A DNA stretch of 19,427 nt from a bacterium (GCA_031362565.1 JANLSU010000008.1:1-19427); one strand, 5' to 3'; positions 2,325 through 19,427 are shown, counted from the first letter of the stretch. Numbers and translations: made by a program. The notes: generated from the sequence alone by a model not told the origin.

Positions 2325-2340
2325 GGGCACGGATCTTGTT
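2325..2340 (+). promoter_or_regulatory. putative sigma54 (-24/-12) promoter for the fad cluster
   Basis: GGGCACGGATCTTGTT versus consensus TGGCACG-N4-TTGC(A/T); correct spacing, GT instead of GC at -12; 46 nt upstream of the thiolase ATG. Confidence 0.4.
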
Positions 2341-2386
2341 TGCTCGCAATCGATTCGGACGACGGATCCGCAGTGGGGGGACGCGC

Positions 2387-3673
2387 ATGCCTGGACAACC
2401 GCAAGTCGCCGTGGTGGCGGGAGTGCGAACGCCTTTCGTGCGTTCGGGCACCCGCTTCCGCGACCTGTCCGCCGTGCGCCTGGGCGAAGTCGTCGTCTCG
2501 GAACTGGTGCAACGCGCCGGACTCGATCCGGAACTCGTCGACGAAGTGATTCTCGGCAACATCGCGCAGCCCGCCGATGCCACCAACGTCGCACGCGTGG
2601 TGGCGCTCCGGGCTGGAATTCCGATCGATCGTCCCGCCTATACGGTGCAACGCAATTGCGCTTCGGGCATGCAAGCGATCACCAACGGCGCCGAAGCGAT
2701 TCTATGCGGCCGCGCCGAAGTCGTGATTGCCGGCGGCACCGAATCGATGAGCGCTATTCCGCTGCTCTTCCCACCGGCCATGAGCGACTGGCTGGCGGGT
2801 TTCGTTCGTGCCAAGACCGTGGTCCAGCGCTTGAGCGCCGTCGGTCGATTCCGCGCCGCGTATCTCAAGCCGCGCATCGCCCTCGAAATGGGCCTGACCG
2901 ACGCGTACGCGGGCATCAACATGGGACAAACCGCCGAGGTGCTGGCGCGCGAGTTCGGGATTCGCCGCCGCGACCAGGATGCCTACGCGGTCGAGAGCCA
3001 CCGGCGCGCCGTGCAGGCCCGGCCGCACTTACGCGACGAAATCGTGCCGACGCCGACCGCCGACTTTACGGCGCTTCTGCAAGACGACTTTGGACCGCGC
3101 GAGGATGCCTCGGTCGACCGCTTGGCGAAGATGCGGCCGTACTTCGACCGCCGTTCGGGCACCGTCACCATCGGCAACTCGTGTCCGATCACCGACGGTG
3201 CCGCCGCCGTGCTGCTCATGAGCGTCGATGCAGCGCGCCGCTACGGGTTCGAACCGCTCGGGGTATTGCGGAACTGGTCCTATGCGGGACTCGAACCCGA
3301 GCGCATGGGGCTCGGTCCCGCCTACGCGACCGCCCGGGTGCTCAAGCAGTCCGGCGCCGCGTGGCGCGACATTCAACTCGTGGAATTGAACGAAGCATTC
3401 GCGGCCCAAGTGCTCGCGAACCAGCGGGCGTTCGAGTCCGGTGTCGAAGCGGCGCCCGGCCGCACGCCTCTTGCACCCATCGGAGCGATCGACCCCGAAC
3501 GGCTGAACGTCAACGGCGGCGCGATCGCCTTGGGACATCCAGTCGGCGCATCGGGCGCGCGGCTCGTGGTGACGCTCTTGAACGAGATGCGGCGCCGCGA
3601 CTGCACGCTGGGGCTTGCGACCTTGTGTATCGGCGGCGGGCAGGGGGCGGCGCTCCTCTTCGATCGCAACTAG
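2387..3673 (+). CDS. fadI: acetyl-CoA C-acyltransferase (3-ketoacyl-CoA thiolase), FadI-type beta subunit
   Basis: GVRTPF, catalytic Cys in [31 protein letters not shown] 2387 follows GGGGGG. Sits directly upstream of a fadJ-like gene. Confidence 0.9.
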
Positions 3674-3708
3674 GCAACCGCATCGAGGAGCGCAACGTGG
3701 GAGGACCG

Positions 3709-5919
<2,211 letters not shown>

Positions 5920-5935
5920 AGAAACAGGCATTGCC

Positions 5936-6895
5936 ATGATGGGTCGCGTGCGCCATGGTGGCCGCCGTCCTCGGACGGCTCTTGTTTTGGGCTCCGGCGG
6001 GATCAAAACCGTCTGCCATATCGGACTTTTCAAAGTACTGCGGCGTCAGGGCATCCCGATCGACCTCGTGGTGGGTTCGAGCGGCGGCGCGCTCTTCGGC
6101 GCTGCCTATGCGCTCGGCACCGACCCCGACGTCCTCGAGCAGGCCGTGCGCCGTTACTGGCGCCGCGAACTCTTCCGCGACTACGGCTACAGCTCGATGC
6201 TCAAGATGCTGTCGCCGCGCCTGTTCCACTTCGACGAAAATTTCGGCATTCTAAAAGGTGAATCGGTACGCCGGCTCTTGAGCCGATTGCTTGGGCGGGT
6301 CCGTTTCGAGGACCTCGAGACCAAGCTCCTGGTCGTGGCGACCGACCTGCAAACCGGCGACGCGACGGTGCTGCGCGACGGACTGCTGTCGGAAGCCATC
6401 CGCGCCAGCATTGCGATTCCGATTCTCCTGCCGCCGTATCGCGTCAACGGCCGGTGGCTGCTGGATGGAGCGGTGAGTTCGCCGCTGCCCATCGAGCATG
6501 CGATCGCCGAGGGCGCCGAAGTCATCATCGCGATGGGTTTTCCTTCGGCCTTGCACCCGCGCATCGACGGGCCGCTAAGGCTCGTGACCCAGCTCATGCG
6601 CATCGCCGGCAATCGCCTGTACCGGGCTGAACTCGCCTATCATGCGCGCAACCCGGCCATCGAGGTCGTGAACATCGAAGTGCAGTGCAATGCCAACATC
6701 GGCATTCGCGACGTGCACGAGATTCCGACCCTCGTCGCCATGGGCGAAGAGGCCGCCGAACGCGCCCTGCCTGATATCCGGCGCACGCTGGCGGAGTTTC
6801 ACACGACTCGCAACCGCACCAAGCGGCGCATTCGCATTTCGATGCGGCGCGCTCTGCGCACCGCGGTGACGGATTTGCCCGAGTACGGTTCGTAG
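5936..6895 (+). CDS. patatin-like phospholipase (RssA/NTE-like)
   Basis: ALVLGSGGIK oxyanion loop, VVGSSGGA nucleophile (GxSxG), ASIAIP, LLDGA catalytic Asp motif. Start at ATG 5936 or 5939. Confidence 0.9.
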   Translation: MMGRVRHGGRRPRTALVLGSGGIKTVCHIGLFKVLRRQGIPIDLVVGSSGGALFGAAYALGTDPDVLEQAVRRYWRRELFRDYGYSSMLKMLSPRLFHFDENFGILKGESVRRLLSRLLGRVRFEDLETKLLVVATDLQTGDATVLRDGLLSEAIRASIAIPILLPPYRVNGRWLLDGAVSSPLPIEHAIAEGAEVIIAMGFPSALHPRIDGPLRLVTQLMRIAGNRLYRAELAYHARNPAIEVVNIEVQCNANIGIRDVHEIPTLVAMGEEAAERALPDIRRTLAEFHTTRNRTKRRIRISMRRALRTAVTDLPEYGS

Positions 6896-6969
6896 GCGGG
6901 GAGGGGCGCGTTCGTATGGGGCGGGCGCGTCGGGGGTCATCCGCATTACGGTCGAGGTGAGGCAGCACC

Positions 6970-7878
6970 ATGCACGAGCATTCCATCGAACGCCCACAGG
7001 ATTGGTGGCATCGCCTCACGGCGTGGTTGCGCGAGGCCACGAGTTCGCTCGTGCGGCGCAACGACACGCCGCTTGCACTGCCGACTTCGGCCACACTTGC
7101 CGCCCAGCGCGCGGCGCGCGCCGAGGCCGAGCGCCGCTATGTATTCCACATGCAGGGCCGGCGCATCGGCTGTCTGCTCGTGCACGGCCTCACCTCCACG
7201 CCGCAGAGCGTGCGGGCGCTGGGTGAAGCGTTCGCGGCGCGCGGTATCGACGTCGAATCGGTGCTGCTCCCCGGCCACGGCACGAGCCCCGAGGATCTCG
7301 AGACGACGTCCTGGGAACAGTGGTACGAAGTCGTCCGCGGCGGGCTCGACCGCTTGCGGCCGAGGTGCGACCGCATGTTCGTGTGCGGCCAGTCGATGGG
7401 CGGTGCGTTGGCGCTCCGCGCCGCGGCCCGCGAGCCCTTGGACGGGGTCATCACATTGGCCGGGTTCGTGTATCTCAAGGATTGGCGGCTGCGATTCCTG
7501 CCGGCAATGAAGCACTTCACGCATTGGCGCAAGTGCATCGGCAACGACATCGCCGATACGTCGCGCCGCGATGAAGTCTGTTACGACCGCATCGCGCTCT
7601 CGACCGTCGAGCAACTCGTGTCGCTTGGCCAGGCGGTGCGCAGCGATCTCCCCAAGATCGAGGTGCCGGCACTCGTCATCCAATCGCGCGTCGACCACGT
7701 CGTGCCGCCCGAGACGGCCGACCTCATCTACGACACGATTGCCTCCACCGACCGCGAGTTGGTGCGGCTCGAGAACTCCTACCACGTCATCTCGATGGAC
7801 TTCGACTTCGACATCGTCGTCGAACGGAGCGTCCGCTTCATGCGCCGCGTCGCCTACGCGGAACAGCGGGCGCGCTGA
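6970..7878 (+). CDS. alpha/beta hydrolase, carboxylesterase / monoacylglycerol lipase (YvaK-like)
   Basis: LLVHGLTSTP, LPGHGT, GQSMGG (Ser), DHVV (Asp), NSYHVIS (His); GAGG upstream of ATG. Confidence 0.9.
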   Translation: MHEHSIERPQDWWHRLTAWLREATSSLVRRNDTPLALPTSATLAAQRAARAEAERRYVFHMQGRRIGCLLVHGLTSTPQSVRALGEAFAARGIDVESVLLPGHGTSPEDLETTSWEQWYEVVRGGLDRLRPRCDRMFVCGQSMGGALALRAAAREPLDGVITLAGFVYLKDWRLRFLPAMKHFTHWRKCIGNDIADTSRRDEVCYDRIALSTVEQLVSLGQAVRSDLPKIEVPALVIQSRVDHVVPPETADLIYDTIASTDRELVRLENSYHVISMDFDFDIVVERSVRFMRRVAYAEQRAR

Positions 7879-7894
7879 AACGGGCGGGGGCCAA

Positions 7895-7917
7895 GCCGTC
7901 ACCGCCCGCCGAGTCCG
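7895..7917 (+). repeat. 23-bp direct repeat, copy 1 (GCCGTCACCGCCCGCCGAGTCCG)
   Basis: Identical to 9956-9978; 16 bp after the esterase stop codon. Confidence 0.9.
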
Positions 7918-7986
7918 ATGGGCCTGGTGGCAGGTTCTTCTTTCCCCGCGATCGCGGCGTGTATAGAGTCGCCTGGGGAGCGGTCT

Positions 7987-9375
7987 ATGGCACCTGGGCG
8001 GGAATTCGGGCACGGCGAGCGGCAACGACGGGACGTTCGAAGGCGAACCTCGTCGCGGTCGATTCTGAAATGCCTGACGACTGCACTGCCGGTGATTGTT
8101 CTGGTGTTTGCGAGTGCGGTTCGGGGGCAAACCACGACCGGGATCGTGCGTTGGACCGACGCGCCCTATCCACAAGGCACAACCCACGTCGCCATCGAAG
8201 TTGTCGACCCTGACCGCGACTTGCAACCCGGAGCTCCCGATCAGGTCCTCGTACACGCAGAGAGCCCGTCCGATACACCGGAACCGCTCGTCCTGACCGA
8301 GACGGGTGCGCACACGGGAATATTCCGCGGGTCCATCCCATTGGACACCGTGGCTTTGGGCCAGGGCCCCGGCGTACAGGACGGCCGGGTGCAAGGCAGG
8401 ATCGGCGACTCGCTGACGGCCCGCTACATCGATCCCACCGACGATTTTGGCAATCCCAAGGTTCTGACTCAACAAGTTCTGCTCGCCGGTCTCGAGGGGC
8501 GGCTCCCGCGAGTTCTCAGCATGGCGTCGAGTCCTTACGTCGTTACCGCGGATGTGGAAGTCGCCGGCGGTGACACGCTCCACATCGAACCAGGTGTCGA
8601 GATTCGCTTCCTGCCTCGGCGGTGCATGCGCGTTCTTGATCGAGGCTCCTTCATCGCGCCGGGCACTCCGGAGAACGAAATCCACTTCGTAGCGCATCAG
8701 TCCGGCCCCGCATCTCACTGGGGATGCCTTTCGTTCCTCGAAGACAACTTCGACAGCCTGCCTGTTGCACTGCACCATGTCATCTTCGAGGGTGGCGGCA
8801 ATGGACAAACCGCGTCTCTCTTGGCCGAGAGGCCCCTGTCTTTGTACGACTGCGCCGTGCGTTCGTCGTCGTCCGCTGGAGTACTGAGCTACAACGCGGC
8901 GCTCTACCTCCGGAATGTCGACCTCATTGGCAATCAGGAGGATGGGATCCAGTCGGACCGCAGTCTCGATTGGCGCGGTGGACGAGTCGAAAGCAACGGC
9001 GGGAGCGGGATCCACGTCGGCGGCGCCGGATCCCTGCCACTGGCAACCATCGACTCGGTGCTCGTGCAAGGTAACGGTCTAGATGGCATTTCCGATCACA
9101 CGGAGAGTCCCTTGGCCCACGTCGTCGTCCGCCACTGTACGGTCAAGAACAACGGCGGCCATGGGGTGTACAAGACATCGGAACCCAGTGGGGCATTGTC
9201 GGTGACCGAGTGCCAACTGCAAGACAATAATTCGGGCTACGATCTGTACAACGATTCGACGAATGATGTGCTCGCGCAGTACAACGACTGGGGTCCGGCG
9301 ACGACATCAGAGATGAACACTGGACCCAACCCGCGGAACATCGCGCGGATCTTCGATGTGAATGACGATCCCAGC
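7987..9375 (+). pseudogene. N-terminal part of a secreted Ig-like + right-handed parallel beta-helix surface protein (truncated, fused in frame to the next fragment; the open frame continues to 10173)
   Basis: GGGGAG then ATG 7987; signal peptide (CLTTALPVIVLVFASAVRG-Q); VVDPDRD...LTETGAHTGIFRGSI...GDSLTARYID Ig-like module; SPYVVTADVEV...IEPGVEIRF and repeated N..DGI/N.G.GI beta-helix rungs; ends at YNDWG...IFDVNDDPS. Confidence 0.65.
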
Positions 9376-9825
9376 ACCGCTGCACTCGAGGCGACTGGGC
9401 GTTCGTTGGGCGCTTTGATGACGGCGGCCGCGGCGGTTGGATTCTCCGGCGTGGTTCTCGTCGCCCAAGATGACAGGATCCTGTTGCGCCAGGCCTACGG
9501 GCTCGCAGATCGCAGCACCCGCACCCCGGTTACCGTCGAAATGCCATTCGACATTGGTTCGATTACGAAGCAATTCACCGCCGCGGCGATTCTGCGCCTC
9601 GAAATGCAAGGCAAGCTCGACGTTCAGCAGCCGATCTCCACCTATCTGGACAGCGTGCCGGCCGACAAGGCCGGGATCACGCTGCATCATGTCTTGACTC
9701 ACACCGCCGGATTTCCCGAGTACTCGGGGGACGACTATGCCGCGGCGACTCGCGACCCCACCGTGAAGAATATCCTCGCGACCCCGATCGAGTCGAAGCC
9801 GGGATCGGCATTCGAGTACTCGAAC
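9376..9825 (+). pseudogene. fragment of a beta-lactamase class C / serine hydrolase family protein
   Basis: GFSGVVLVA, AYGLAD, FDIGSITKQFTA (SxxK at 9559-9570), LTHTAG, PGSAFEYSN (YxN at 9817-9825). Similarity stops right after YSN; there is no H/K-T/S-G motif, and the rest of the frame (to 10173) reads antisense into the next gene. Confidence 0.75.
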
Positions 9826-9955
9826 CCCACTCGCGCCGACATCGGCAACAACCTTCGTCGGCTTTCACCTGGGCATCGCGCGGCCGGTCCAGGTGACTTT
9901 TTCGCCGGCGGCTCCCGGTCCCGTCGCCACACTGCAGATCTCCTGCGGCGGCCCT

Positions 9956-9978
9956 GCCGTCACCGCCCGCCGAGTCCG
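9956..9978 (+). repeat. 23-bp direct repeat, copy 2
   Basis: Identical to 7895-7917; 47 bp beyond the stop codon of the minus-strand ATP-grasp gene. Confidence 0.9.
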
Positions 9979-10025
9979 GTAGGCTGGAGCGGCGTTCGCG
10001 CGGCGTTGAGTCATTCCGGGGTCAG

Positions 10026-12011
10026 TCAACGCGTGAACCTTGCCGCGAGCTTGATCGCACGGCCGCGGCCGCTCTTGATGAAGCGGAAGAGTGCGCGCAG
10101 CCAAGGAGAATGTCGCGGCGCATCGGATTCCGGAGCGACACCGATGAGTTGGACCGTGTTGGCGTCGAGATAACGAGCCCGCGCGACTTCGATCACGCGG
10201 CCGAGGATCTGACTATGCGAATACCCAGCGCGCGCGCCGGCCTTCGCGAACGATCCGCTCTCGTCGAGGATTCCGACGGTGTTGATCTCGATGACATAGG
10301 CCTGACCCAGCTCCGAAATTCGAAAATCGATGCGCGCGTAGTCGCGGCAGCCGCATGTCCGAAAGGTGGTCCGAGCGTAGGCACGGATCCGCTCGGCCAA
10401 CGCTGCATCGATCCGCGCCGGGCACGTCTTCTTGTTGGCCGTGCGGTCGAATTCCACGAGGGGCAGGCACTCGATGGGATCGTTACCGAGCAAGGCCACC
10501 ATGACCTGCCGCCCGGCAATGTACTCCTCCACGAGGACCTCCTGCCGGTACTTCCGCTTCACTGTCTTGACCGTGTCCTTGAGCTGCTGTGGGTCGCGGA
10601 CGATGTGCGAACCGTACCGCCATTCATGGCGTGGCTTGACGATCAACGGAAACTCGAGTCCTTCGATTTCATCGCGCGAACGTGCCATGAGATGGAACCC
10701 TGGCGTCGGAACTCCCGCTTGCTGGAGAAGCGTCTTGGCAACGACCTTGTCGGAAATGACTGCGTGGCCGTTCGGAGTCGGTCCGGCGTAAGCAATGCCC
10801 GCCATTTCGAGCATTGCAGGCACGTGGGTGTAGCGGCCGTTGCCCTGAATACCGTGCGCGAGGTTGAGAACGATTCCGCCGGGGTGGCCGGTCCGGGGGT
10901 TGGGCGGCACGAATTGGTTCAACTCGTTCAGAAGCGACATATCGCCTTCGAGGACCTTGACCGTGTGCCCGCCCGCCCGCAGGCTGTTGACGATTCTCTG
11001 CACCGAATGGCGCGCCAACCGGGCCGGCGTCGGTTGCCCGAGACGGGCGATCGTGCCGGTACCCATGGAATTGCGGACGACCGCGACGCGGTACGCGCCC
11101 TTGTTCGAGAGCAGCTCGGGAAGCGCCATGCCGGCCATCTTCGAGTCCCAATCCTGGAACAGCTGGAAATCCATGAATTCCGCGATGAGGACGATTGCGA
11201 CGAGTTGCGTCAGAAGAATCTCGGGGAACTGCAGGGCGGTTTCGAGGACCGCCGGCACCTTGGTCAGCAGGACCATCAGGACAGCCAGGATGATCGTTGT
11301 GGCCGCACGCCATGAGGCGGAGAGCAGGCTATCTTTATTCAATGTGTTGACGATGCCCTCGGCGAGCATTCCCAGGACGATAACTGGGAAATACGCCACG
11401 CCCCAGAGGACCTCCGACCGGACCCAAGGCCCGGCCAGGAGGGCCGTCACCATGGTGATTGCGACGATGGACAGAATGACCGAGACCCGCGCGTAGTACG
11501 GCAGTCGGAACTTCTTGAGCCACGGCCGCACGAGTGACACCGTGACGACCACGACCGCGATCAAGAAGAGGCTCGGAAGAATGCCAACTTGGTGGAAACC
11601 GACGGCGACCAAGATCGACCGAAAGCCGAGCACGCGAATCCCGCACGTCAGTCGAGCGAGCACGATCAGCATTGCATAGGAAGGGACGAGCAGCAAATAC
11701 AAGATGTGCGATCGCTGCCCAGCGGGAACCGAAGCGAGCGAGAACGTTTCGTTGAGCGCACCGCCGAGCCTGCGAAGCGCGTCGAGACCGGGCATATTCC
11801 ACCCGAGGCTCTCGATGCCGGGAAGTGCAGTGGCCCGGATGATCATGGTGACGAACGGGAGCGCACCAAGAACGAGCAACCATCGCAGCGTTCGGCGCGG
11901 GATGTGACCCTTGGGGCGCAGTCGAAATCTCGACGCCTTCGGATTCGGCCGGGGCGCGGCGGCGACCGGGGGAGTGTCGCGGACGCGCAAGTTCTCGATG
12001 CGCGCGCTCAC
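10026..12011 (-). CDS. fusion of a 7TM domain (7TM_transglut-like) and a D-Ala-D-Ala-ligase-like ATP-grasp domain
   Basis: Membrane part (~11150-11890): FSLASVP..Q..ILYLLLVP...LARLTCGIRVLG, YARVSVILSIV, YFPVIVLGMLAE, FPEILL. ATP-grasp part (~10170-11100): VLNLAHG, VPAMLEMAGIAY, DKVVAK...GVPTP, FPLIVKP, VLVEEYIAGR, CPA, RDYARIDFR, VIEINT. GTGA overlap with the upstream HlyD gene. Confidence 0.85.
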   Translation of the reverse strand: MSARIENLRVRDTPPVAAAPRPNPKASRFRLRPKGHIPRRTLRWLLVLGALPFVTMIIRATALPGIESLGWNMPGLDALRRLGGALNETFSLASVPAGQRSHILYLLLVPSYAMLIVLARLTCGIRVLGFRSILVAVGFHQVGILPSLFLIAVVVVTVSLVRPWLKKFRLPYYARVSVILSIVAITMVTALLAGPWVRSEVLWGVAYFPVIVLGMLAEGIVNTLNKDSLLSASWRAATTIILAVLMVLLTKVPAVLETALQFPEILLTQLVAIVLIAEFMDFQLFQDWDSKMAGMALPELLSNKGAYRVAVVRNSMGTGTIARLGQPTPARLARHSVQRIVNSLRAGGHTVKVLEGDMSLLNELNQFVPPNPRTGHPGGIVLNLAHGIQGNGRYTHVPAMLEMAGIAYAGPTPNGHAVISDKVVAKTLLQQAGVPTPGFHLMARSRDEIEGLEFPLIVKPRHEWRYGSHIVRDPQQLKDTVKTVKRKYRQEVLVEEYIAGRQVMVALLGNDPIECLPLVEFDRTANKKTCPARIDAALAERIRAYARTTFRTCGCRDYARIDFRISELGQAYVIEINTVGILDESGSFAKAGARAGYSHSQILGRVIEVARARYLDANTVQLIGVAPESDAPRHSPWLRALFRFIKSGRGRAIKLAARFTR

Positions 12012-13165
12012 TTCTTCCGAATCCCGACCACAGCCGAGAGCCCCGGAAACAGACCCTGCAGATCTTCGAGCCGGATCCGGACACAGACCACCGGTGCGGA
12101 TCGCATCCGCTCGCTGCGCGGTTGGGGGACGGACGACTCCGGGAGCTCGTAGTCGGTCGAAACGCCGATCGTCTCCACGACGCCGGCGAAGATCCGGCCG
12201 GGGAACGGTTTGACCGTGACTCGCGCCGCGCTTCCAACCTCCATGTTCGCCAAGTCGTTTTCATTGATCCACGCCTCCACCCACAACCGCTTACCGAGCC
12301 AAAGGGAGGCAACCGGTTGTCCGAGCGTGACGGAGCCGCCGGGTTCGGCGATCCGGCGGATGACCCAGCCATCCTCCGGGGCGCGAATCAGAGTGGCCCG
12401 GAGGTCGGCTTCGGCGAGTTGGAGCTCGGCGCGGTAGGCGGCGATTTCGGCCTCGAGAACGACGATGTGCTGCTCGCGAATCGACAGTCCTTGCGACTCC
12501 ACTTCAGCCAACTCGTGCGCTGCTTCGGCAGCTCGTTGGTCCGCCTTGGCTGTCGCACCCTCGGCATTGGCGCTGCGGCGGTTCGTATCGGCGCTTCGCA
12601 ACTCCTCCGAAGGAACGACCCCGGCCTTCGTGAGCGTTTGTGCCAGGGTGTATCGTTCGCCGGCATCTTGAACGTGAGTTTGAGCGGCGTCGGCTTGGGC
12701 CTTGGCCGCCGCGACGCGGGCAGATGCCTCCGAGACCAGGCTCGAAAAGCGCCGCCCTTCGTGCGCGATCGACAGGCGCTCGACCTCGAGCGCCAGAGTC
12801 GCCCGCTGGACCTGAGATTTAGCTTGTTCGACTCGGGCCTTCAATTGATCGTCCTGGAGGCGGACGAGAACTTGCCCGGCTTTGACTTGTTGCCCCGCAT
12901 CGACCTCGACCGCGGTTACGACCCCGCTGAGCTGAACGCCCACGTCGGCGACGTAACCCTTTACGATCGCGTTGTTCGACACCACGTAGCCGGCGCGAAA
13001 GCGCGCCCACAAGGCAACGGGCACGACGACCGCCACAATCGCGCCCCCGATGACCACCCGCAGCGCGATCCGCCGCCTCCGGCGCGACCAGCGCCGCTTG
13101 GGAACCGGTTGGGGCTCTGAAGTCGGGATGGTCTTGAGCCTCGAGCGGCGCGCGGTATCACTCAT
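12008..13165 (-). CDS. HlyD/EmrA-family membrane fusion (periplasmic adaptor) protein
   Basis: Basic N-terminus plus one TM helix (IALRVVIGGAIVAVVVPVALWA); lipoyl halves SGVVTAVEVDAGQQVKAGQVLVRL and IRAPEDGWV; long coiled coil; WVEAWINE, GLFPGLSAVV. Confidence 0.93.
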   Translation of the reverse strand: MSDTARRSRLKTIPTSEPQPVPKRRWSRRRRRIALRVVIGGAIVAVVVPVALWARFRAGYVVSNNAIVKGYVADVGVQLSGVVTAVEVDAGQQVKAGQVLVRLQDDQLKARVEQAKSQVQRATLALEVERLSIAHEGRRFSSLVSEASARVAAAKAQADAAQTHVQDAGERYTLAQTLTKAGVVPSEELRSADTNRRSANAEGATAKADQRAAEAAHELAEVESQGLSIREQHIVVLEAEIAAYRAELQLAEADLRATLIRAPEDGWVIRRIAEPGGSVTLGQPVASLWLGKRLWVEAWINENDLANMEVGSAARVTVKPFPGRIFAGVVETIGVSTDYELPESSVPQPRSERMRSAPVVCVRIRLEDLQGLFPGLSAVVGIRKK

Positions 13166-14073
13166 CGCTTACCTCCATCCTGGAATAGCGCTTTGAACAC
13201 CCGGTCACCGAGCTGTCCATCTTCCATGAATTGGCGGAACGAGTGGGCGATTCCGGGGACGTGCTCGAACGTGATCTGCGGCTCGATGTGCAATGCGTTG
13301 GCCGTGTTCCGCATCGCCACAGTCCAGTTTCGCGCCCGATCGAGACGCGTCACACCTTGCTGCCGATCGACCTGCGCATTCCGCCGCATGTTTCGGCTCG
13401 TCGTGTCCGCCTCGCCGACGAATACGGCAATCGGCACTTGCAGGAATCGGGACGGGTCGAATGTCACACCCGAGAGCCCTTTGGGACGCGTGCCGTACGG
13501 ATAGTCCGTTCCCGGATCCGGGAACGTGTACCAACCGGCCGACGTGACGGCCGCGCGTGCGACGCGCTCCGGATGTGCCATTGTGTACCGGTGCGCGAAT
13601 TGCGCGCCGCCGGAGAATCCAAACAGGTAGATTTTGGTCGCAGCTGCACCGGTCAGGGACGCGACTTCCTCGACGATCGATTCGAGCCCGTCGTCCGAGC
13701 GCCGTCCGTGCTTGGCGCGGCCGAGCCGTTGAAAGTCATCGAAGTCTCCCGCCGGGAAGAACGGCGCCAGGAGAACCACGCCGGATGTTTCGGCATATGG
13801 AGATAACAGGCGCGCATGCTCCTCCGCGTTCCGGGACGTCCCGTGAACGGCAACGAAGATGCGTGCACCTTGGCCGCCGTGCCGAGGAACGTAGACGTAG
13901 TAGTGTTGTCCGGAGTCCGCGCGCACGGAGCGCAGCAGGACCTGGCCCACGGGGAGGGTAGCGACGGCAGCGGTATCCGCCGGTGAAGACACCGTCGAAT
14001 TCGCCGCCGCCCAGGTCACCGGTGCGAAGCCGAGAGCGCAACACGCGAGTCTGATCGAGATCTTCCAGAACAC
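13162..14073 (-). CDS. alpha/beta hydrolase (esterase/PHB-depolymerase-like), probably exported
   Basis: YYVYVP, VAVHGTSRN, GFSGGAQFAHRY (Ser), VGEAD (Asp), GIAHSF (His). Start uncertain: GTG 14073 (AGGTG upstream) gives a signal-peptide-like N-terminus; ATG 14175 is an alternative. ATGA overlap with HlyD. Confidence 0.82.
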   Translation of the reverse strand: MFWKISIRLACCALGFAPVTWAAANSTVSSPADTAAVATLPVGQVLLRSVRADSGQHYYVYVPRHGGQGARIFVAVHGTSRNAEEHARLLSPYAETSGVVLLAPFFPAGDFDDFQRLGRAKHGRRSDDGLESIVEEVASLTGAAATKIYLFGFSGGAQFAHRYTMAHPERVARAAVTSAGWYTFPDPGTDYPYGTRPKGLSGVTFDPSRFLQVPIAVFVGEADTTSRNMRRNAQVDRQQGVTRLDRARNWTVAMRNTANALHIEPQITFEHVPGIAHSFRQFMEDGQLGDRVFKALFQDGGKR

Positions 14074-14161
14074 GCGGACGCACCTGCCGGTCGACCGACG
14101 TGCCGCCGCAGATGCCTGGGTCCGGGGATCCGTGTGCGGCCGGGGGAGCAGGACCACGAGA

Positions 14162-15031
14162 CTACGGATTACCATTGCCACCATTCGGAGCCGGAGCGCT
14201 CGGCCCGCCAAATAGCGCTTCGAAGGCCCGGCCACCGAGTTGATGATCCGCTGCAAGGCTCTTGAAAGAGTGGCTACCGCCGTCGATTTCCCGGAGGGAG
14301 ACGAGCGGATGGAAGCGATAGGCGTCCGCCGCGGCGCGCATCGACGCAACCCAATTTCGGGCTCTCTCGACTCGGGTTACGCCCTGGGCGTCCGCCCGTT
14401 TGGTTCGGCGCATGCCCGCCGTGGTCGTATCCTCGGAACCCACGAAGACCGTGGTCGGAACACGCAGGAACTCTTCAGGGTCGAACCGCACGCCGCGCAG
14501 GCGCGAAGTCGGCCGGATCCCGTACGGGAATCGGTCGCGAGCGTTCGGAAACGTATACCAACCAGCCGAGACGATGACAGCCCGCGCGACCCGCGACGGG
14601 TACGCCATCAGGTAGCGGTGCGCGAATTGAGCGCCACCGGAGTGCCCAAACAAGTGGATCTGTTGTGTCACCACGCCCGTCAACCACATGACTTCTTCGA
14701 TGATCGCGTTGAGCGCGAGGTCGGAACGGGCACCCCGCCCCTGGAATCCGAGCCGTTGGTAGTCGGGATGCTGTTCCTTCGCGAAGTGCGGAGCGACGAG
14801 GACGACGCCGAGCGCCTCTGCATACGGCGCGAAGCGCTTGACGAGGTCACGAGGATTCCGCGAAATCCCGTGTACGAGCACACACAGTGGCGCATCGCGG
14901 CTATCCAATCGCGGAACATACACCAGGTACTCTTGCGCTGGATCGGTGCGAAGCACGCGGCGCAATACCGTTTGCTTCGCCAGCGGCCCACCGACCTTCG
15001 GCGTCGGCTGACCAATTCGTGCCGTTTCCAT
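14162..15031 (-). CDS. alpha/beta hydrolase, paralog of the downstream gene, probably cytoplasmic
   Basis: YLVYVP, VLVHGISRN, GHSGGAQFAHRY, VGSED, GGSHSF. ATG 15031 follows AAGGGGAG; alternative GTG 15046 overlaps the upstream stop (GTGA). Confidence 0.87.
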   Translation of the reverse strand: METARIGQPTPKVGGPLAKQTVLRRVLRTDPAQEYLVYVPRLDSRDAPLCVLVHGISRNPRDLVKRFAPYAEALGVVLVAPHFAKEQHPDYQRLGFQGRGARSDLALNAIIEEVMWLTGVVTQQIHLFGHSGGAQFAHRYLMAYPSRVARAVIVSAGWYTFPNARDRFPYGIRPTSRLRGVRFDPEEFLRVPTTVFVGSEDTTTAGMRRTKRADAQGVTRVERARNWVASMRAAADAYRFHPLVSLREIDGGSHSFKSLAADHQLGGRAFEALFGGPSAPAPNGGNGNP

Positions 15032-15042
15032 GGACTCCCCTT

Positions 15043-16284
15043 TCACGACCGCGGTTCGCTCCCGTTGACGATCGCACCGTCGCTCGCTCGACTGGGATAC
15101 GAAGCGTGCGAGGACCCTGGCGAGTCGCCGTTACTGTTGTTCCCTTCATGTCGCCCTGACGGAACGATGTTGTCGTCGACGGCCGCACCCTGCGTCTGGT
15201 TTAGGATCTTCATCGCGATGCCCGCTCGCGAAAGATCCTCGCGATTGTATGCCGGTAGTCCGGTCGCCCGCCGTGCCTCTTCGGATTGCAATGGTGATGC
15301 GGTCAGCACTCCTCCGAATGCGACAACGGGCAGGCCCGCGTCACGCAGGAAGTGGTAACCCGCCACGGCGCCCATTGCGTCGCCGGCGGTGAACAGAAGA
15401 ACGCTCACGGCGGCCTTGAAAACCGGGGACGAAAGCAAGGCGGCCGTCTCCTGTTGCAGCACGCCGTCGGCGACCTCGAGCACGATCGCGTCAACGCTGG
15501 CCTTGGTCAGGTAGGCGATGAGCATTTTGAACGTCGACTCGATTTGGCTCTGCGGCACCAAATACGTCGACACCAGGCCGGCATCGGTGAAATCGAGAAC
15601 CGGATAGGCGCCGGCATCGCGTAGGAGCCACGTGTCGCCGCCCGCCCCAGTGCCCGTAACTTTCGCGTAGCCAACGCGGAGCCCGGCGCGGGTCAACCCT
15701 TTAGTCAGGTAGGCAGCGGTCTGGGTCTTCCCCGAGTCCATGCCGGTTCCGACCACGGCGACGGTCGCCGGGTACGCCCCTGTTTGCTGGTCGGGGACTT
15801 GAAGAGCGTAGTCACGGATATTGACCGGTGTGCCAGCTGTGTCCGCGAGCAACCCGATCGGTGTGATCTGAGTTGGTCCCTTGGTGATCTTCGCATGCCA
15901 CGACCGCGCCTTGGCGGCAACTCCGCCGCTCGCGACGAGATGACACGGGCCGAGCGTTTCCGGAACGATCGCCTCGAATTGATTCGCAGCGTAGCGGTTC
16001 CCATAGACCACGACGATCTCGTCGCCTTCGAAGAGGTGTACACGTCGACCGTCCGCGAGTTGCAGACCGGTGTGATTCCGGATCACGTCAACGCGCGCCA
16101 GGAGCAATTGTCCGGCTTCAGGCTTACTTGCTTCCTTGATGATCGAGAAGATCGCGCTGTGCGGCACTCTGCGTGTCGTGTGCGCCCAGGCTGCACGGCG
16201 GAGCCGGGTCATTTCCGACCGCAGGCCACGACCGGTGTGCAGGTCACTTGTCGCGCGCTGCTCAGTGGATCCGGGATCCAACAT
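15043..16284 (-). CDS. DUF1611-like P-loop NTPase (BioD/SIMIBI-like)
   Basis: GNRYAANQFEA, LVASGGVA N-terminal region; P-loop VVGTGMDSGKT; AKVTGTGAGGD, DFTDAGLVSTY, VLEVADGVLQQET. ATG 16284 follows GAGGGAGGG; alternative ATG 16212. Confidence 0.82.
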   Translation of the reverse strand: MLDPGSTEQRATSDLHTGRGLRSEMTRLRRAAWAHTTRRVPHSAIFSIIKEASKPEAGQLLLARVDVIRNHTGLQLADGRRVHLFEGDEIVVVYGNRYAANQFEAIVPETLGPCHLVASGGVAAKARSWHAKITKGPTQITPIGLLADTAGTPVNIRDYALQVPDQQTGAYPATVAVVGTGMDSGKTQTAAYLTKGLTRAGLRVGYAKVTGTGAGGDTWLLRDAGAYPVLDFTDAGLVSTYLVPQSQIESTFKMLIAYLTKASVDAIVLEVADGVLQQETAALLSSPVFKAAVSVLLFTAGDAMGAVAGYHFLRDAGLPVVAFGGVLTASPLQSEEARRATGLPAYNREDLSRAGIAMKILNQTQGAAVDDNIVPSGRHEGNNSNGDSPGSSHASYPSRASDGAIVNGSEPRS

Positions 16285-16377
16285 CCGAAACCGCCCTCCC
16301 TCGGGACGTCGCTCGCCCGCAGTTCCGCTCCGGGTTGCGCGACAGTGGTGTTGCAACGAACAACGCGCGACAGGAAT

Positions 16378-16487
16378 TGCCAACAGCGCGCCGTGTGCAC
16401 CTTCGGGTTGACCCCCGACCAAAGGGCCCATGAAGAATAGCTATACCATCGTTAAGAATGGGTAATCGCTCAACAAACAACGCGTTA
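16378..16487 (-). promoter_or_regulatory. AT-rich promoter region of the DUF1611 operon with sigma54-like and IHF-like elements
   Basis: Minus strand CGGCGCGCTGTTGGCA (16393-16378; GG-N10-GC) and TGGTATAGCTATTCTT (16448-16433; lacks the -12 GC). Plus strand AAACAACGCGTTA (16475-16487) is one mismatch from the IHF consensus WATCAA-N4-TTR. Confidence 0.3.
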
Positions 16488-16638
16488 CAGGCGTTTCTCG
16501 ATTGGGTGGTTGAACCCATTTTTGCCGACGCAGCGGTGCAATGAGCGCCGCCCTTCGGCCACGCCGGCGGCGTCCCGGCCGACGCCCGGCCACGGTCCAA
16601 GAGCCGTGCGGCGCATTCTGTTGAAGGTGGTTGGCGTT

Positions 16639-17556
16639 TCAGGTTTCCCAAATCGCGGTCTCGAACCGGCCACTCGAATCGGCAGCGCCGCGGTACATGC
16701 CGGCACTGTTGAAGACGAGAGCGATCTCGCCGCTCTTCGAAACCGCGATGAGCCCGCCGTCGCCGGGCTGAAGCTTGCCGTCGATCACTCCGTGCGCCGC
16801 GTCCGCGAGCGGCATGGCCCGATACTCGACGAGGGCCGCGACATCGCGGGCCACAGTATTCCGGATGAACTGTTCGCCCCGGCCGGTGCACGAAACCGCG
16901 CAGTTGCGGTCGTTCGCGTAAGTTCCCGCGCCAATGATCGGCGAGTCGCCGACCCGGCCCCAACGTTTGTTGGTCACGCCCCCGGTGGACGTGGCGGCGG
17001 CGAGATGTCCGTGCGTGTCGAGCGCCACGCAGCCGACGGTTCCGAGTTCCTCCGCGAGTAACGTTCTTTGCCATTTATTTCGGCGCCGGCGTGTGTCGAA
17101 CCAACGGTTGTCGACAACCGGCACGCCCTGGGACCGGGCAAAAGAGTGGGCGCCGGGACCGGCAAGGAACACATGAGTCGATTTCTCCATCACCAGGCGC
17201 GCCAGGCTAATTGGATTCCGCACGGTTCGTACGCCTGCCACGGCGCCGCACTCGAGCGTCGCGCCGTTCATGATCGCGGCATCCAGCTCGTGCTTTCCGC
17301 TGTGCGTGTAGACGGCACCTTTGCCCGCGTTGAACAGCTTGTCGTCTTCGAGGGCCCGGACTACGGCTTCGACGGCGTCGAGGCTCGTGCCGCGTTTCGC
17401 GAGAATCGTGCGGCCCAGTTCAAGCGCGCGTTGGAGCGACGTTCGGTACGCGTCCGCCCGCGTCGGTTTCATGTCCTTGGAAATGTGCCCGGCGCCGCCA
17501 TGCAAGGCGAGCGCCCAGAGCGGGCGCGGCACGCCGCGTGCGGATTTCGGAACCAC
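16639..17556 (-). CDS. iaaA: isoaspartyl peptidase / plant-type L-asparaginase (Ntn hydrolase)
   Basis: LALHGGAG, LEDDKLFNAGKGAV, ELDAAIM, autocleavage site G-TVGCVALD, ATSTGG, RVGDSPIIGAG, SCTGRGE. GTG 17556 follows GGAGG; the longer N-terminus in the ORF track is spurious. Confidence 0.93.
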   Translation of the reverse strand: MVPKSARGVPRPLWALALHGGAGHISKDMKPTRADAYRTSLQRALELGRTILAKRGTSLDAVEAVVRALEDDKLFNAGKGAVYTHSGKHELDAAIMNGATLECGAVAGVRTVRNPISLARLVMEKSTHVFLAGPGAHSFARSQGVPVVDNRWFDTRRRRNKWQRTLLAEELGTVGCVALDTHGHLAAATSTGGVTNKRWGRVGDSPIIGAGTYANDRNCAVSCTGRGEQFIRNTVARDVAALVEYRAMPLADAAHGVIDGKLQPGDGGLIAVSKSGEIALVFNSAGMYRGAADSSGRFETAIWET

Positions 17557-17598: not shown

Positions 17599-17802
17599 GA
17601 GGAGGCGGGCGATGACTCGAGGGTGTGCGGCATCATCATTGGCTGACGCCGTGCTGACCTGCACCAATGCGCCATGGCACACGAAGCCTGGCCGCGAGGC
17701 TACCGAGGCAGTGTTTCGAGCAAGTCCAGCAACGGCCAGAACTCTGTCGCGCCGCGGTTGAGCCGGCGCGGACCGAGAAAGATCGCAATCCGGCGCAGGG
17801 GT

Positions 17803-18010
17803 GGCAACGACGGGCGGTTCGACGGCGAACCTCGTCGCTATCCAACCGACGGCTGCGGTAATCCGAGGATTCTTACGCAGCAGGTCCTGCTCGCGGGTCT
17901 CGAGGGGCCGCTCCCCCGAGTGAAGACAACTTCGACAGCCCGCTCGTAGCACTGTCTTGAGCTACAACGCTGCTCTCTACTCGGAATGTCGACCTGGTTG
18001 GGAATCAGGA
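17803..18010 (+). pseudogene. telescoped relic of a paralog of the beta-helix gene at 7987-9375
   Basis: Four collinear blocks match 8021-8056, 8431-8514, 8740-8758 and 8881-8939, with the intervening sequence deleted and a 2-nt frameshift in the last block. Confidence 0.88.
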
Positions 18011-19427
18011 CAGCTGGTCCAACCCATACCGCCGCACCAGCGCCGCAAACCGCGGATCGCTCCGGATGGGATCCAACCGCGGGTGCACCCGCAGGAAGAT
18101 CAACCCGGTCGCGCCCTCATCCATCGCGGTATCGAGCCAGCGGAACGCGTCGTCGACGTCGCCCAGGCTGGCATGCACCGCGGCGATACCCCACGCCGAC
18201 ACGACGCGCTGTGAGCGGGCGGCGGTGAGTTCGGTGAGCATGCGCCGTGCGGCGTCGACGTTGCCACTGCTCGCCTCGAGATGCGCCAGGCCGAAGGATG
18301 GCCCCGCGACGGCGCCGGCCAACCGGCGGCCTTCCTCGTACTCGGCGCGGGACTCGTCGAAGTTGCCGAGTGCTTCCAACGAGCGCGCGAGATCGGTGTG
18401 CGCGCCGTCGAAGCGGGGGTCGAGCCGGATCGCCTTGCGGTAGTAGCCGGCGGACTTCTCGTATTCGCGCGCATAGTAGTAAGCGTCGCCGACCGCCGTA
18501 TGCAGGATCATCGACAGAGGATCGAGGCTCACGGACTTGAGCATCGCCTCCTGGGCCTCGGCGTGACGCTCGGTACAGTAGTAGATGCGTCCGAGCACGT
18601 GATACGCTGGCGTGAGCCCGGGATTCAGTTCGATCGCCTTCTGCAGCGACCGGATTGCCCCCGGCAGATCGCGTTCGAACGCTTGAACGCCGCCCAGCAC
18701 CGAGTAGGCGTCGGCCAGCGAGTCGTCCAGTTCGAGAGCCTTCATCGCGGCGGCGCGCGCTTGCGCGCACGCTTCGGCAGGCGGCGCCATGCCGCGCGCG
18801 GCGCGTGTGTAGTGGCACTCGGCCACGCCGGCCCACGCCGGCGCGTACATCGGATCGAGTTCGAGGGCGCGCTGGAAATACCGCAGGCTCAAATCGATGG
18901 CTTCCGGCGAACTCGCGGCCACTGTGTGCTGGCCCTTGAGGTATTCCAAGTGCGCTGCCGGGTTCACCTCTTGCTGCCGGGCGAGACGTTGCGCCTCGCC
19001 GGGCGTGACGCGAATGGCGATCTCCTTCGCAACAGCGCCCGCGACTTCACTCTGCAGGGTCAGGATGTCCTCGAGATCGCGGTCGTAGCGATCGCTCCAC
19101 AACATCTCGTCTTGCCGGGCGGAAACGAGCTGCACGCTGATGCGGACTCGGTTGCCGACGAGGAGTGCCGAGCCTTCGATGATGGCGTCGACATTCAACT
19201 CGCTCGCGATCTCGGGCAGCGCCCGATGGACGCCTTTGTATTTCATGGCGCTGGTGCGCGAGATGACACGCAAATGCCGCAGGCGCGCCAAGTCGGAGAT
19301 CAGCGCTTCGGTCATGCCGTCCGCGAAGTACTCCTGGGCCGGGTCGCGCGACAGGTTGTCGAGCGGCAGAACGGCAAGCGAACGGATGACGCCCGGTTCG
19401 GTGACGGCGCTTTCGCGCTGCCCACCG
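18005..19427 (-). CDS. TolB-N-like + TPR repeat protein (C-terminal part; 5' end beyond right edge; such modules usually follow a kinase, cyclase or winged-helix domain)
   Basis: Frame open to the edge: IRSLAVLPLDNLSRDPAQEYFADGMTEALISDLA, VISRTSAMKYK, VDAIIEGS, WSDRYDR, TPRs (ALELDP, AIELNP, AIRLDP), terminal DPIRSDPRFAALVRRYGL. Confidence 0.92.
   Translation of the reverse strand, partial: GGQRESAVTEPGVIRSLAVLPLDNLSRDPAQEYFADGMTEALISDLARLRHLRVISRTSAMKYKGVHRALPEIASELNVDAIIEGSALLVGNRVRISVQLVSARQDEMLWSDRYDRDLEDILTLQSEVAGAVAKEIAIRVTPGEAQRLARQQEVNPAAHLEYLKGQHTVAASSPEAIDLSLRYFQRALELDPMYAPAWAGVAECHYTRAARGMAPPAEACAQARAAAMKALELDDSLADAYSVLGGVQAFERDLPGAIRSLQKAIELNPGLTPAYHVLGRIYYCTERHAEAQEAMLKSVSLDPLSMILHTAVGDAYYYAREYEKSAGYYRKAIRLDPRFDGAHTDLARSLEALGNFDESRAEYEEGRRLAGAVAGPSFGLAHLEASSGNVDAARRMLTELTAARSQRVVSAWGIAAVHASLGDVDDAFRWLDTAMDEGATGLIFLRVHPRLDPIRSDPRFAALVRRYGLDQLS

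Follow-up and report, generated by a model that had tools for sequence, protein, structure and literature searches.

A conserved bacterial operon joins two predicted PahZ1-family hydrolases to a BioD-fold protein and export parts and may make a beta-linked aspartate polyamide

What substrate would bring together, in a single bacterial operon, two hydrolases, an ATP-binding P-loop protein, a HlyD-type adaptor and a seven-transmembrane (7TM) protein fused to an ATP-grasp domain? The question is raised by a 19,427-nucleotide stretch of bacterial DNA (GCA_031362565.1, JANLSU010000008.1:1-19427; hereafter the window), a whole contig (C48) of genome G000, which carries these five genes as an operon on the minus strand (Table 1). 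A first-pass annotation had read them as an undescribed membrane-anchored system for the synthesis, export and turnover of an amide or peptide polymer, with the neighbouring isoaspartyl peptidase gene iaaA as its least certain member. All five open reading frames (ORFs) were found where that annotation had placed them, and the gene set, which maps to no named pathway that we found, is still best understood as a system for synthesising, exporting and trimming an amide polymer. That the five genes form a real, conserved operon is confirmed. From them we infer, with a probability of roughly 45%, that the operon synthesises a beta-linked oligo- or polyamide rich in aspartate and sends it out of the cell, the product being a natural poly(beta-aspartate) or a close relative.

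The evidence that carries this reading begins with the two hydrolases, which are predicted to be poly(aspartic acid) hydrolases of the PahZ1 family, one cytoplasmic and one secreted, with the catalytic triad and the beta-bond arginine intact in both. Against solved structures, a profile of 33 hydrolase sequences found PahZ1 with E-values of 1.8e-48 and 6.6e-46; the match to the next family was no better than 2e-4. PahZ1 was also the best Protein Data Bank (PDB) match of each protein alone (9o7u at E 3.7e-18 and 6ve6 at E 6.1e-18 for hydrolase 1; 9o7u at E 1.6e-24 for hydrolase 2), and the two are paralogs sharing 52% identity. The triad of hydrolase 1 (S131/D201/H254) was mapped onto 6ve6 and 9o7u, and its S131, D201 and R220 correspond to S157, D225 and R246 of PahZ1 from strain KT-1; D201 and R220 are invariant in 33/33 alignment rows, S131 nearly so, and hydrolase 2 has the triad and arginines behind a hydrophobic leader. 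In PahZ1, R246 is reported to discriminate beta from alpha bonds (PMC13017698), and the enzyme cuts beta- but not alpha-aspartyl bonds, requires trimers and can polymerise diethyl aspartate (PMC4456602). Across related loci, the hydrolase whose gene follows the P-loop gene is intact in 72 of 75 cases and has a hydrophobic N-terminus in none of the 75, while copies further downstream are intact in 49 of 51, bear a leader in 41 and often include a lamin-tail domain; copies fused to HlyD retain the full residue set in 0 of 13. The window holds one hydrolase of the cytoplasmic type and one of the leader-bearing type, and their PahZ1 identity strengthens the earlier idea of an isopeptide product. 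At one locus (L090), the P-loop protein and hydrolase share a single ORF with an internal start-like stretch, which was not counted as a fusion.

The same genes recur together well beyond this genome. An alignment of 47 fusion proteins retrieved 141 related loci (61 from genomes and 80 from metagenomes), which include near-duplicates and are not independent. The four gene types, P-loop, hydrolase, HlyD and 7TM/ATP-grasp, are all present in 79 of the 141, in the window's order in 77 of these, and most loci with an incomplete set are short contigs; where a fusion locus extends at least 5.5 kb upstream, P-loop, hydrolase and HlyD genes accompany it in 54 of 58 cases, and HlyD in 56 of these 58 long loci. 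The recurrence in unrelated genomes that the polymer reading called for was thus found, in at least six phyla according to record labels (Krumholzibacteriota, Pseudomonadota, Myxococcota, Acidobacteriota, Eisenbacteria and Chloroflexota); two records labelled Bifidobacterium (L046, L060) were left out of the count, a search centred on one of them having given the same genomes as the Pseudomonadota search. The operon is nonetheless rare and patchy, with P-loop matches, distant types included, in 5 of 201 genomes of its own phylum and in 4 of 401 and 11 of 401 genomes of two other samples. Among 36 loci with long flanks, the accessory neighbours centre on aspartate and isopeptides: CphA-like genes in 12, aspartate beta-hydroxylase-like genes in 11, YheCD ATP-grasp genes in 8, CapA-like genes in 5 and cyanophycinase genes in 2. 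Literature searches, which reached few subscription papers (few of the early PahZ1 papers among them) and, of the supplements, only that of PMC13759103, returned no description of the operon. In genome G001 (L176:7022-7850), an internal deletion fuses the P-loop gene's first half with the final part of the 7TM gene, between flanks syntenic with a relative that retains the operon, and this remnant in syntenic DNA indicates that the operon was lost as a block.

Among the proteins shared by the loci, the P-loop protein alone is a candidate for bond formation. In a structure model (pLDDT 87.6), its C-terminal domain matches the DUF1611 protein TM0796 (2g0t; Z 16.5, root-mean-square deviation (rmsd) 3.2, 171 residues aligned) and BioD (Z 16.2), with further DUF1611-type matches to 2obn (Z 14.8) and to DgcN (7xrj, Z 13.6), an enzyme that we take to use acyl-CoA. 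Of the families named in the first-pass annotation, 7TM_transglut, Dala_Dala_lig_C and HlyD were matched in Pfam, but DUF1611 scores 17.3 bits in this protein, against a cut-off of 25; other Pfam matches to this protein are weak P-loop matches only, and no NCBIfam family matched it at E 1e-4. Its P-loop and second lysine align with those of BioD, and R80, K186, T187, K208, D217, D231, D234, E270 and D273 are invariant (69/69), presumably in the ATP- and Mg-binding roles of the BioD residues. In 15 further loci the P-loop gene accompanies an ABC exporter (6), an arginine operon (4), a hydrolase and S8 protease (2), an M20 peptidase (2) or iaaA (1), with no 7TM fusion among the matches listed. 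The pairing with an ABC exporter occurs on three annotated plasmids, two of which have an annotated alpha/beta hydrolase directly upstream, and a phosphate-type porin is encoded in 2 ABC-variant loci. The P-loop proteins of export-linked loci form their own well-supported clade.

The arginine loci bear on the likely chemistry. In these four, P-loop homologs of 28-30% identity lie among argC/argB/argG/argF'/argR, in the position of argA, align full-length with the window protein across both domains and share its invariant residues. The arrangements are argR-P-argC-argB, argG-P-argC-argF'-argE and, in two 31%-GC genomes, P-argC-argB (L173:7089-10739, L175:5252-11717, L197:8148-11027, L198:6277-9153). 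A distant DgcN homolog in arg operons has been predicted, without experimental confirmation, to be an N-succinylglutamate synthase (GapMind 2026, PMC13759103), and our link to this Steroidobacter protein rests on operon context and a shared DgcN resemblance. Since the arg-operon homologs share the BioD-type ATP/Mg residues, this predicted alternative ArgA may be ATP-dependent rather than acyl-CoA-dependent. Elsewhere, on a Priestia megaterium plasmid (L161:4793-13481), a P-loop homolog of 27% identity forms part of a phosphonate-type cluster that also encodes two ATP-grasp proteins, a PEP-mutase-family protein and a carbamoyltransferase. Exported proteins or S8 proteases with long Asp/Glu tracts are encoded beside the P-loop gene at L172, L192-L195, L066 and L136, several of these loci also having an ECF sigma factor or a two-component pair.

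The ATP-grasp domain, the other potential ligase, appears from its residues to be a decaying pseudo-ligase, in which a single loop loss was probably followed by progressive decay and of which the window protein would be an intermediate. In the fusion protein, 7TM_transglut scores 63 bits (cut-off 25) and Dala_Dala_lig_C 83 bits, and the ATP-grasp domain has the Ddl fold (Z 31.8, rmsd 2.1, 287 residues aligned). Identification as a housekeeping Ddl or Van-type ligase was rejected, as the loops are lost and the domain scores 121 bits against the curated D-Ala-D-Ala ligase family, under the cut-off of 243; a separate Ddl-like gene lies on contig C87 of G000. The seven Ddl-type ATP/metal residues, whose roles we assume to be those in Ddl, are all kept in 9 of 200 distinct fusions, and only three are kept in 117 of the 200. 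Of these nine, eight retain the serine phosphate-binding and omega loops as well; both are lost in the remaining one, the window protein, with the serines replaced and ~18 omega-loop residues missing relative to intact homologs. All 53 scorable loci with a P-loop gene have a loopless ATP-grasp domain, and the loops are intact in all 4 long loci that lack the P-loop gene (L022, its near-duplicate L105, L070 and L075), a pattern that suggests a hand-over of catalysis from the ATP-grasp domain to the P-loop enzyme. The degeneracy across the family and the lost loops of the window copy leave the two working ligases of the first pass unsupported. A quick tree of 39 rows separates loopless from intact forms at one branch; housekeeping Ddl falls among the intact forms, and the window protein branches close to them. 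The window protein's closest relatives score 5 or 6 of the 7 residues. Identity to the window protein is lower in the ATP-grasp part (42%) than in the 7TM part (55%). A Thiohalocapsa assembly contains both forms, one contig (L022) with HlyD and an intact fusion but no P-loop gene, the other (L062) with the full P-loop operon, a degenerate fusion and an aspartate hydroxylase-like gene.

Export would fall to the HlyD adaptor and the 7TM domain, which we propose as a pair on the basis of their families and linkage. Among NCBIfam families the adaptor is closest to TIGR00998, under its cut-off, and is EmrA-like; no ABC, RND or MFS partner is encoded in the window operon, and G000 has 26 OEP domain matches that provide TolC-type channel candidates. 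For the 7TM part, an Atlas search gave no usable match and a PDB sequence search only non-significant ones. Alignment with CapC (hhalign) gave a score of 20.7 (E 0.015, probability 2.9%), against 9-13 for 15 shuffled and 12.6 for the reversed profile, with no signal from shallower profiles, and CapC (PF14102) was found in 0/1 in G000, the control being positive. CapC occurs in 58 of 151 genomes of the same phylum and in 0 of 5 searched from the window's family, and five genomes of another phylum (L234-L243) have frames of 1000-1200 residues with two CapC domains. A further set of loci (L069-L075, L011-L015) holds split relatives. In Planctomycetota and Verrucomicrobiota, a separate 7TM gene accompanies an intact Ddl-like ligase, a gamma-glutamyltransferase and a KamA-family radical SAM aminomutase; within the window's own class, the ligase either forms a fusion with an M20 peptidase or neighbours a gene resembling glutamate 2,3-aminomutase (595 bits against a cut-off of 650). 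These relatives resemble a polymer-capsule layout and are a candidate beta-amino-acid polymer system.

How might these parts work together? Succinate is aspartate minus its amino group, and membership of a predicted succinylating enzyme family would leave the P-loop enzyme well placed to activate the beta-carboxyl of aspartate and form beta-aspartyl bonds, which PahZ1 cuts. On this ground we infer that the P-loop enzyme may build beta-linked oligo- or poly-aspartate, activating the beta-carboxyl with ATP in the manner of BioD and linking it to the amine of the acidic amino acid that follows. The cytoplasmic PahZ1 would then edit or recycle chains, or polymerise activated units through its serine. 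In the inner membrane, the 7TM domain would pair with the HlyD adaptor, a TolC-type channel being supplied by a gene outside the operon, and the fused ATP-grasp domain, a leftover of the ancestral ligase, might now be a scaffold or chain-binding gate. The exported PahZ1 would trim or release the chain, and in other lineages ABC exporters would take over export. What is directly observed for the operon is gene linkage, family identity, residue conservation and loss, and the signal-peptide pattern. The complete form of the proposal, in which the operon both builds and exports a natural poly(beta-aspartate) that serves PahZ1 as its natural substrate, a BioD-fold ligase has displaced a decaying ATP-grasp ligase and adaptor and 7TM domain form a new channel, is put forward only tentatively, as more doubtful than the nature of the product itself.

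Several findings weigh against a beta-aspartate polymer. LpqC, annotated as a putative PHB (polyhydroxybutyrate) depolymerase, scores like PahZ1 with the hydrolase profile (E 3.8e-46), so the hydrolases could instead act on an ester or another acidic substrate. The sole characterised fold relative of the P-loop protein, DgcN, is an acetyltransferase by its PDB title, which makes ATP-dependent ligation only a proposal, and the argA-type assignment is an unconfirmed prediction. The window ATP-grasp domain retains 7/7 Ddl-type residues, and as loop loss is one event on the tree, the contrast of 53 with 4 loci is not a statistical test. No CphA-like, YheCD, CapA or aspartate hydroxylase homolog was found in G000, so that these accessory genes cannot supply the essential ligase. 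Finally, no natural poly(beta-aspartate) turned up in the literature searches, and such a product would be unprecedented. The retained residues would be explained if the ATP-grasp domain were still an active ligase in this lineage, with the P-loop protein supplying or capping its substrate; the domain also superposes well on Ddl and branches near the intact group. This is nevertheless improbable, given the absent phosphate and omega-loop residues, the incomplete residue sets of its closest relatives and the three residues left in most of the family.

A small-molecule product is less likely: the P-loop enzyme would N-acylate an acidic amino acid or make a short beta-aspartyl peptide, the hydrolases would edit it, and HlyD/7TM, or an ABC exporter with an anion porin, would release it. 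The closest functional relatives make monomeric N-acyl glutamates, and the EmrA-like adaptor, the phosphate-type porin of the 2 ABC-variant loci and the distant homolog in a phosphonate cluster would all suit such a role. PahZ1, however, requires at least trimers (PMC4456602), and an exported PahZ1, intact in 49 of 51 downstream copies and frequently carrying a lamin-tail domain, is consistent with an extracellular polymer. Rather doubtful is a role in modifying envelope or secreted proteins, whose acidic tracts would be beta-aspartylated or acquire isoaspartate, PahZ1 serving as the eraser. The 7TM domain is of the same family as RloB, polyglutamylation has been suggested for rloABC, and exported proteins with long Asp/Glu tracts adjoin the P-loop gene in 5 of 16 further loci, yet such tracts were seen in only 2 of the 7TM-type loci scanned (L066, L136) and none in the window operon. 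There is also little likelihood that the operon is a salvage or detoxification unit degrading environmental or damage-derived isoaspartyl peptides, its membrane parts moving substrates or by-products. Two hydrolases that appear active would serve such a unit, and iaaA adjoins the operon here and the P-loop gene in L083, L190 and L196; set against this, HlyD adaptors and ABC partners belong to exporter types, the loci lack a conserved uptake system, and breakdown has no need of an invariant ligase-fold enzyme.

The gene set shares at most one family with any known system. The PahZ1 enzymes of Sphingomonas KT-1 (6ve6) and Pedobacter KP-2 (9o7u) are by far the best solved relatives of the hydrolases, sharing the alpha/beta hydrolase fold, Ser-Asp-His triad and substrate-positioning arginine, but are periplasmic degraders of a synthetic polymer, whereas the operon has two paralogs, one of them predicted to be cytoplasmic, beside a ligase-fold enzyme and export parts. 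In the rloABC system of Pseudomonas aeruginosa, RloB is a 7TM protein, RloC an ATP-grasp protein and RloA a secreted polyglutamate peptidase (PMC12239564), and a Shewanella homolog affects vesicle output (PMC12096838). The operon shares with rloABC the 7TM_transglut family and a plan in which a cytoplasmic ligase works with a membrane protein and a secreted hydrolase of acidic peptides, but no other part. The operon proteins have no inactive transglutaminase domain, RimK-like ligase or retropepsin peptidase: the ATP-grasp domain is Ddl-like, fused and degenerate, serine hydrolases replace the retropepsin, and HlyD and a P-loop enzyme are added. The poly-gamma-glutamate system consists of CapBCADE or PgsBCA. 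We propose a likeness to it in an ATP-dependent isopeptide ligase, a membrane partner and a depolymerase, with CapA-like genes as occasional neighbours of the operon, but no operon protein matched CapB or CapC, and we class the system as a functional analogue. Cyanophycin metabolism (CphA, CphB, IaaA) likewise involves beta-aspartyl chemistry, and CphA-like and CphB genes neighbour some loci, although both lie outside the core operon and cyanophycin is a cytoplasmic granule without export parts. No cyanophycin link was found in G000, where neither CphA nor CphB gave a homolog (tblastn, E 1e-5, one query each). With BioD and the D-glutamate N-acetyltransferase DgcN the P-loop protein shares the SIMIBI P-loop fold, and with the predicted alternative N-succinylglutamate synthase (PMC13759103) a full-length homology to arg-operon proteins at the argA position; it differs in scoring under the DUF1611 cut-off, in its link to export genes and in lying outside any biotin, D-glutamate or arginine operon.

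The only role known for PahZ1 enzymes is the degradation of a man-made polymer, and the operon is a direct, testable candidate for the source of their natural substrate. If the beta-aspartate reading is true, it would offer a biological means of making poly(beta-aspartate), a biodegradable polyanion that industry now produces thermally, and would add a bacterial amino-acid polymer to poly-gamma-glutamate, epsilon-polylysine and cyanophycin. It would also reveal a polymer ligase of BioD/DUF1611 fold and a HlyD adaptor with a 7TM partner, neither of which we found described, give a function to the 7TM_transglut family, which includes Pseudomonas RloB, and document the replacement of one ligase by another.

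Within the window, the 4-bp stop/start overlaps at 13162-13165 and 12008-12011 that the first-pass annotation had reported were confirmed in the sequence. A third, at 15043-15046, exists only with the GTG start of hydrolase 1; the ATG at 15031, behind a purine-rich stretch resembling a ribosome-binding site (RBS), is likelier and leaves a gap of 11 bp to the P-loop gene. The two hydrolase genes overlap by 14 or 23 bp depending on the start. The P-loop start at 16284 has a strong RBS, agrees with the N-terminus of a relative and lies 354 bp from the iaaA stop, the distance given earlier. Pfam assigns HlyD_D23/HlyD_3 to the HlyD gene and, weakly, Abhydrolase_1 to both hydrolases. A promoter scan of the window returned 0 promoters, with terminators at chance level.

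Table 1. Positions and assignments of the operon genes and of neighbouring iaaA in the window
Gene	Position	Strand	Assignment
P-loop gene	15043..16284	-	SIMIBI-class P-loop protein, 413 aa; N-terminal beta-rich domain and BioD/DUF1611-like domain
Hydrolase 1	14162..15031 (start 15046 if GTG)	-	Predicted PahZ1-family serine hydrolase; no signal peptide, probably cytoplasmic
Hydrolase 2	13162..14175 (alternative start 14184)	-	Predicted PahZ1-family serine hydrolase; signal-peptide-like N-terminus, probably exported
HlyD gene	12008..13165	-	HlyD/EmrA-type periplasmic adaptor; single N-terminal membrane helix (33-51)
7TM/ATP-grasp fusion	10026..12011	-	7TM_transglut (RloB-like) membrane domain and Ddl-fold ATP-grasp domain
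iaaA	16639..17556	-	IaaA-like isoaspartyl peptidase/asparaginase; neighbour of the operon

The iaaA gene is an accessory at most. Its membership of the core, which the first-pass annotation had allowed for, was rejected: of 49 loci whose upstream flank reaches 8 kb or more, just one has iaaA, encoded on the opposite strand, and the window copy is a recent paralog, 80% identical to a gene on contig C34 of G000 that has a leader, which the window copy lacks. The protein matches Asparaginase_2 in Pfam and scores 279 bits against NF007589, under the cut-off of 567. At two loci of ABC or distant type (L190, L196), the P-loop gene also has an asparaginase-family neighbour.

The flanks of the operon look rearranged. 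Beside the window iaaA, on its upstream side (window 17800-18010), lie scrambled repeats of another gene, 79-92%-identical pieces of the beta-helix gene. On the other side of the operon, a 40-bp repeat (window 7884-7923 and 9945-9984) flanks both sides of a beta-helix/serine-hydrolase ORF at 7918-10173, whose hydrolase match ends at residue 638. The unrelated neighbours at 3-2192, 2336-7878 and 18005-19427 include a patatin and an esterase (Pfam), and we also take others to be a kinase/ATPase regulator, a thiolase and a fatty-acid oxidation gene; a TPR protein among them is truncated by the contig end.

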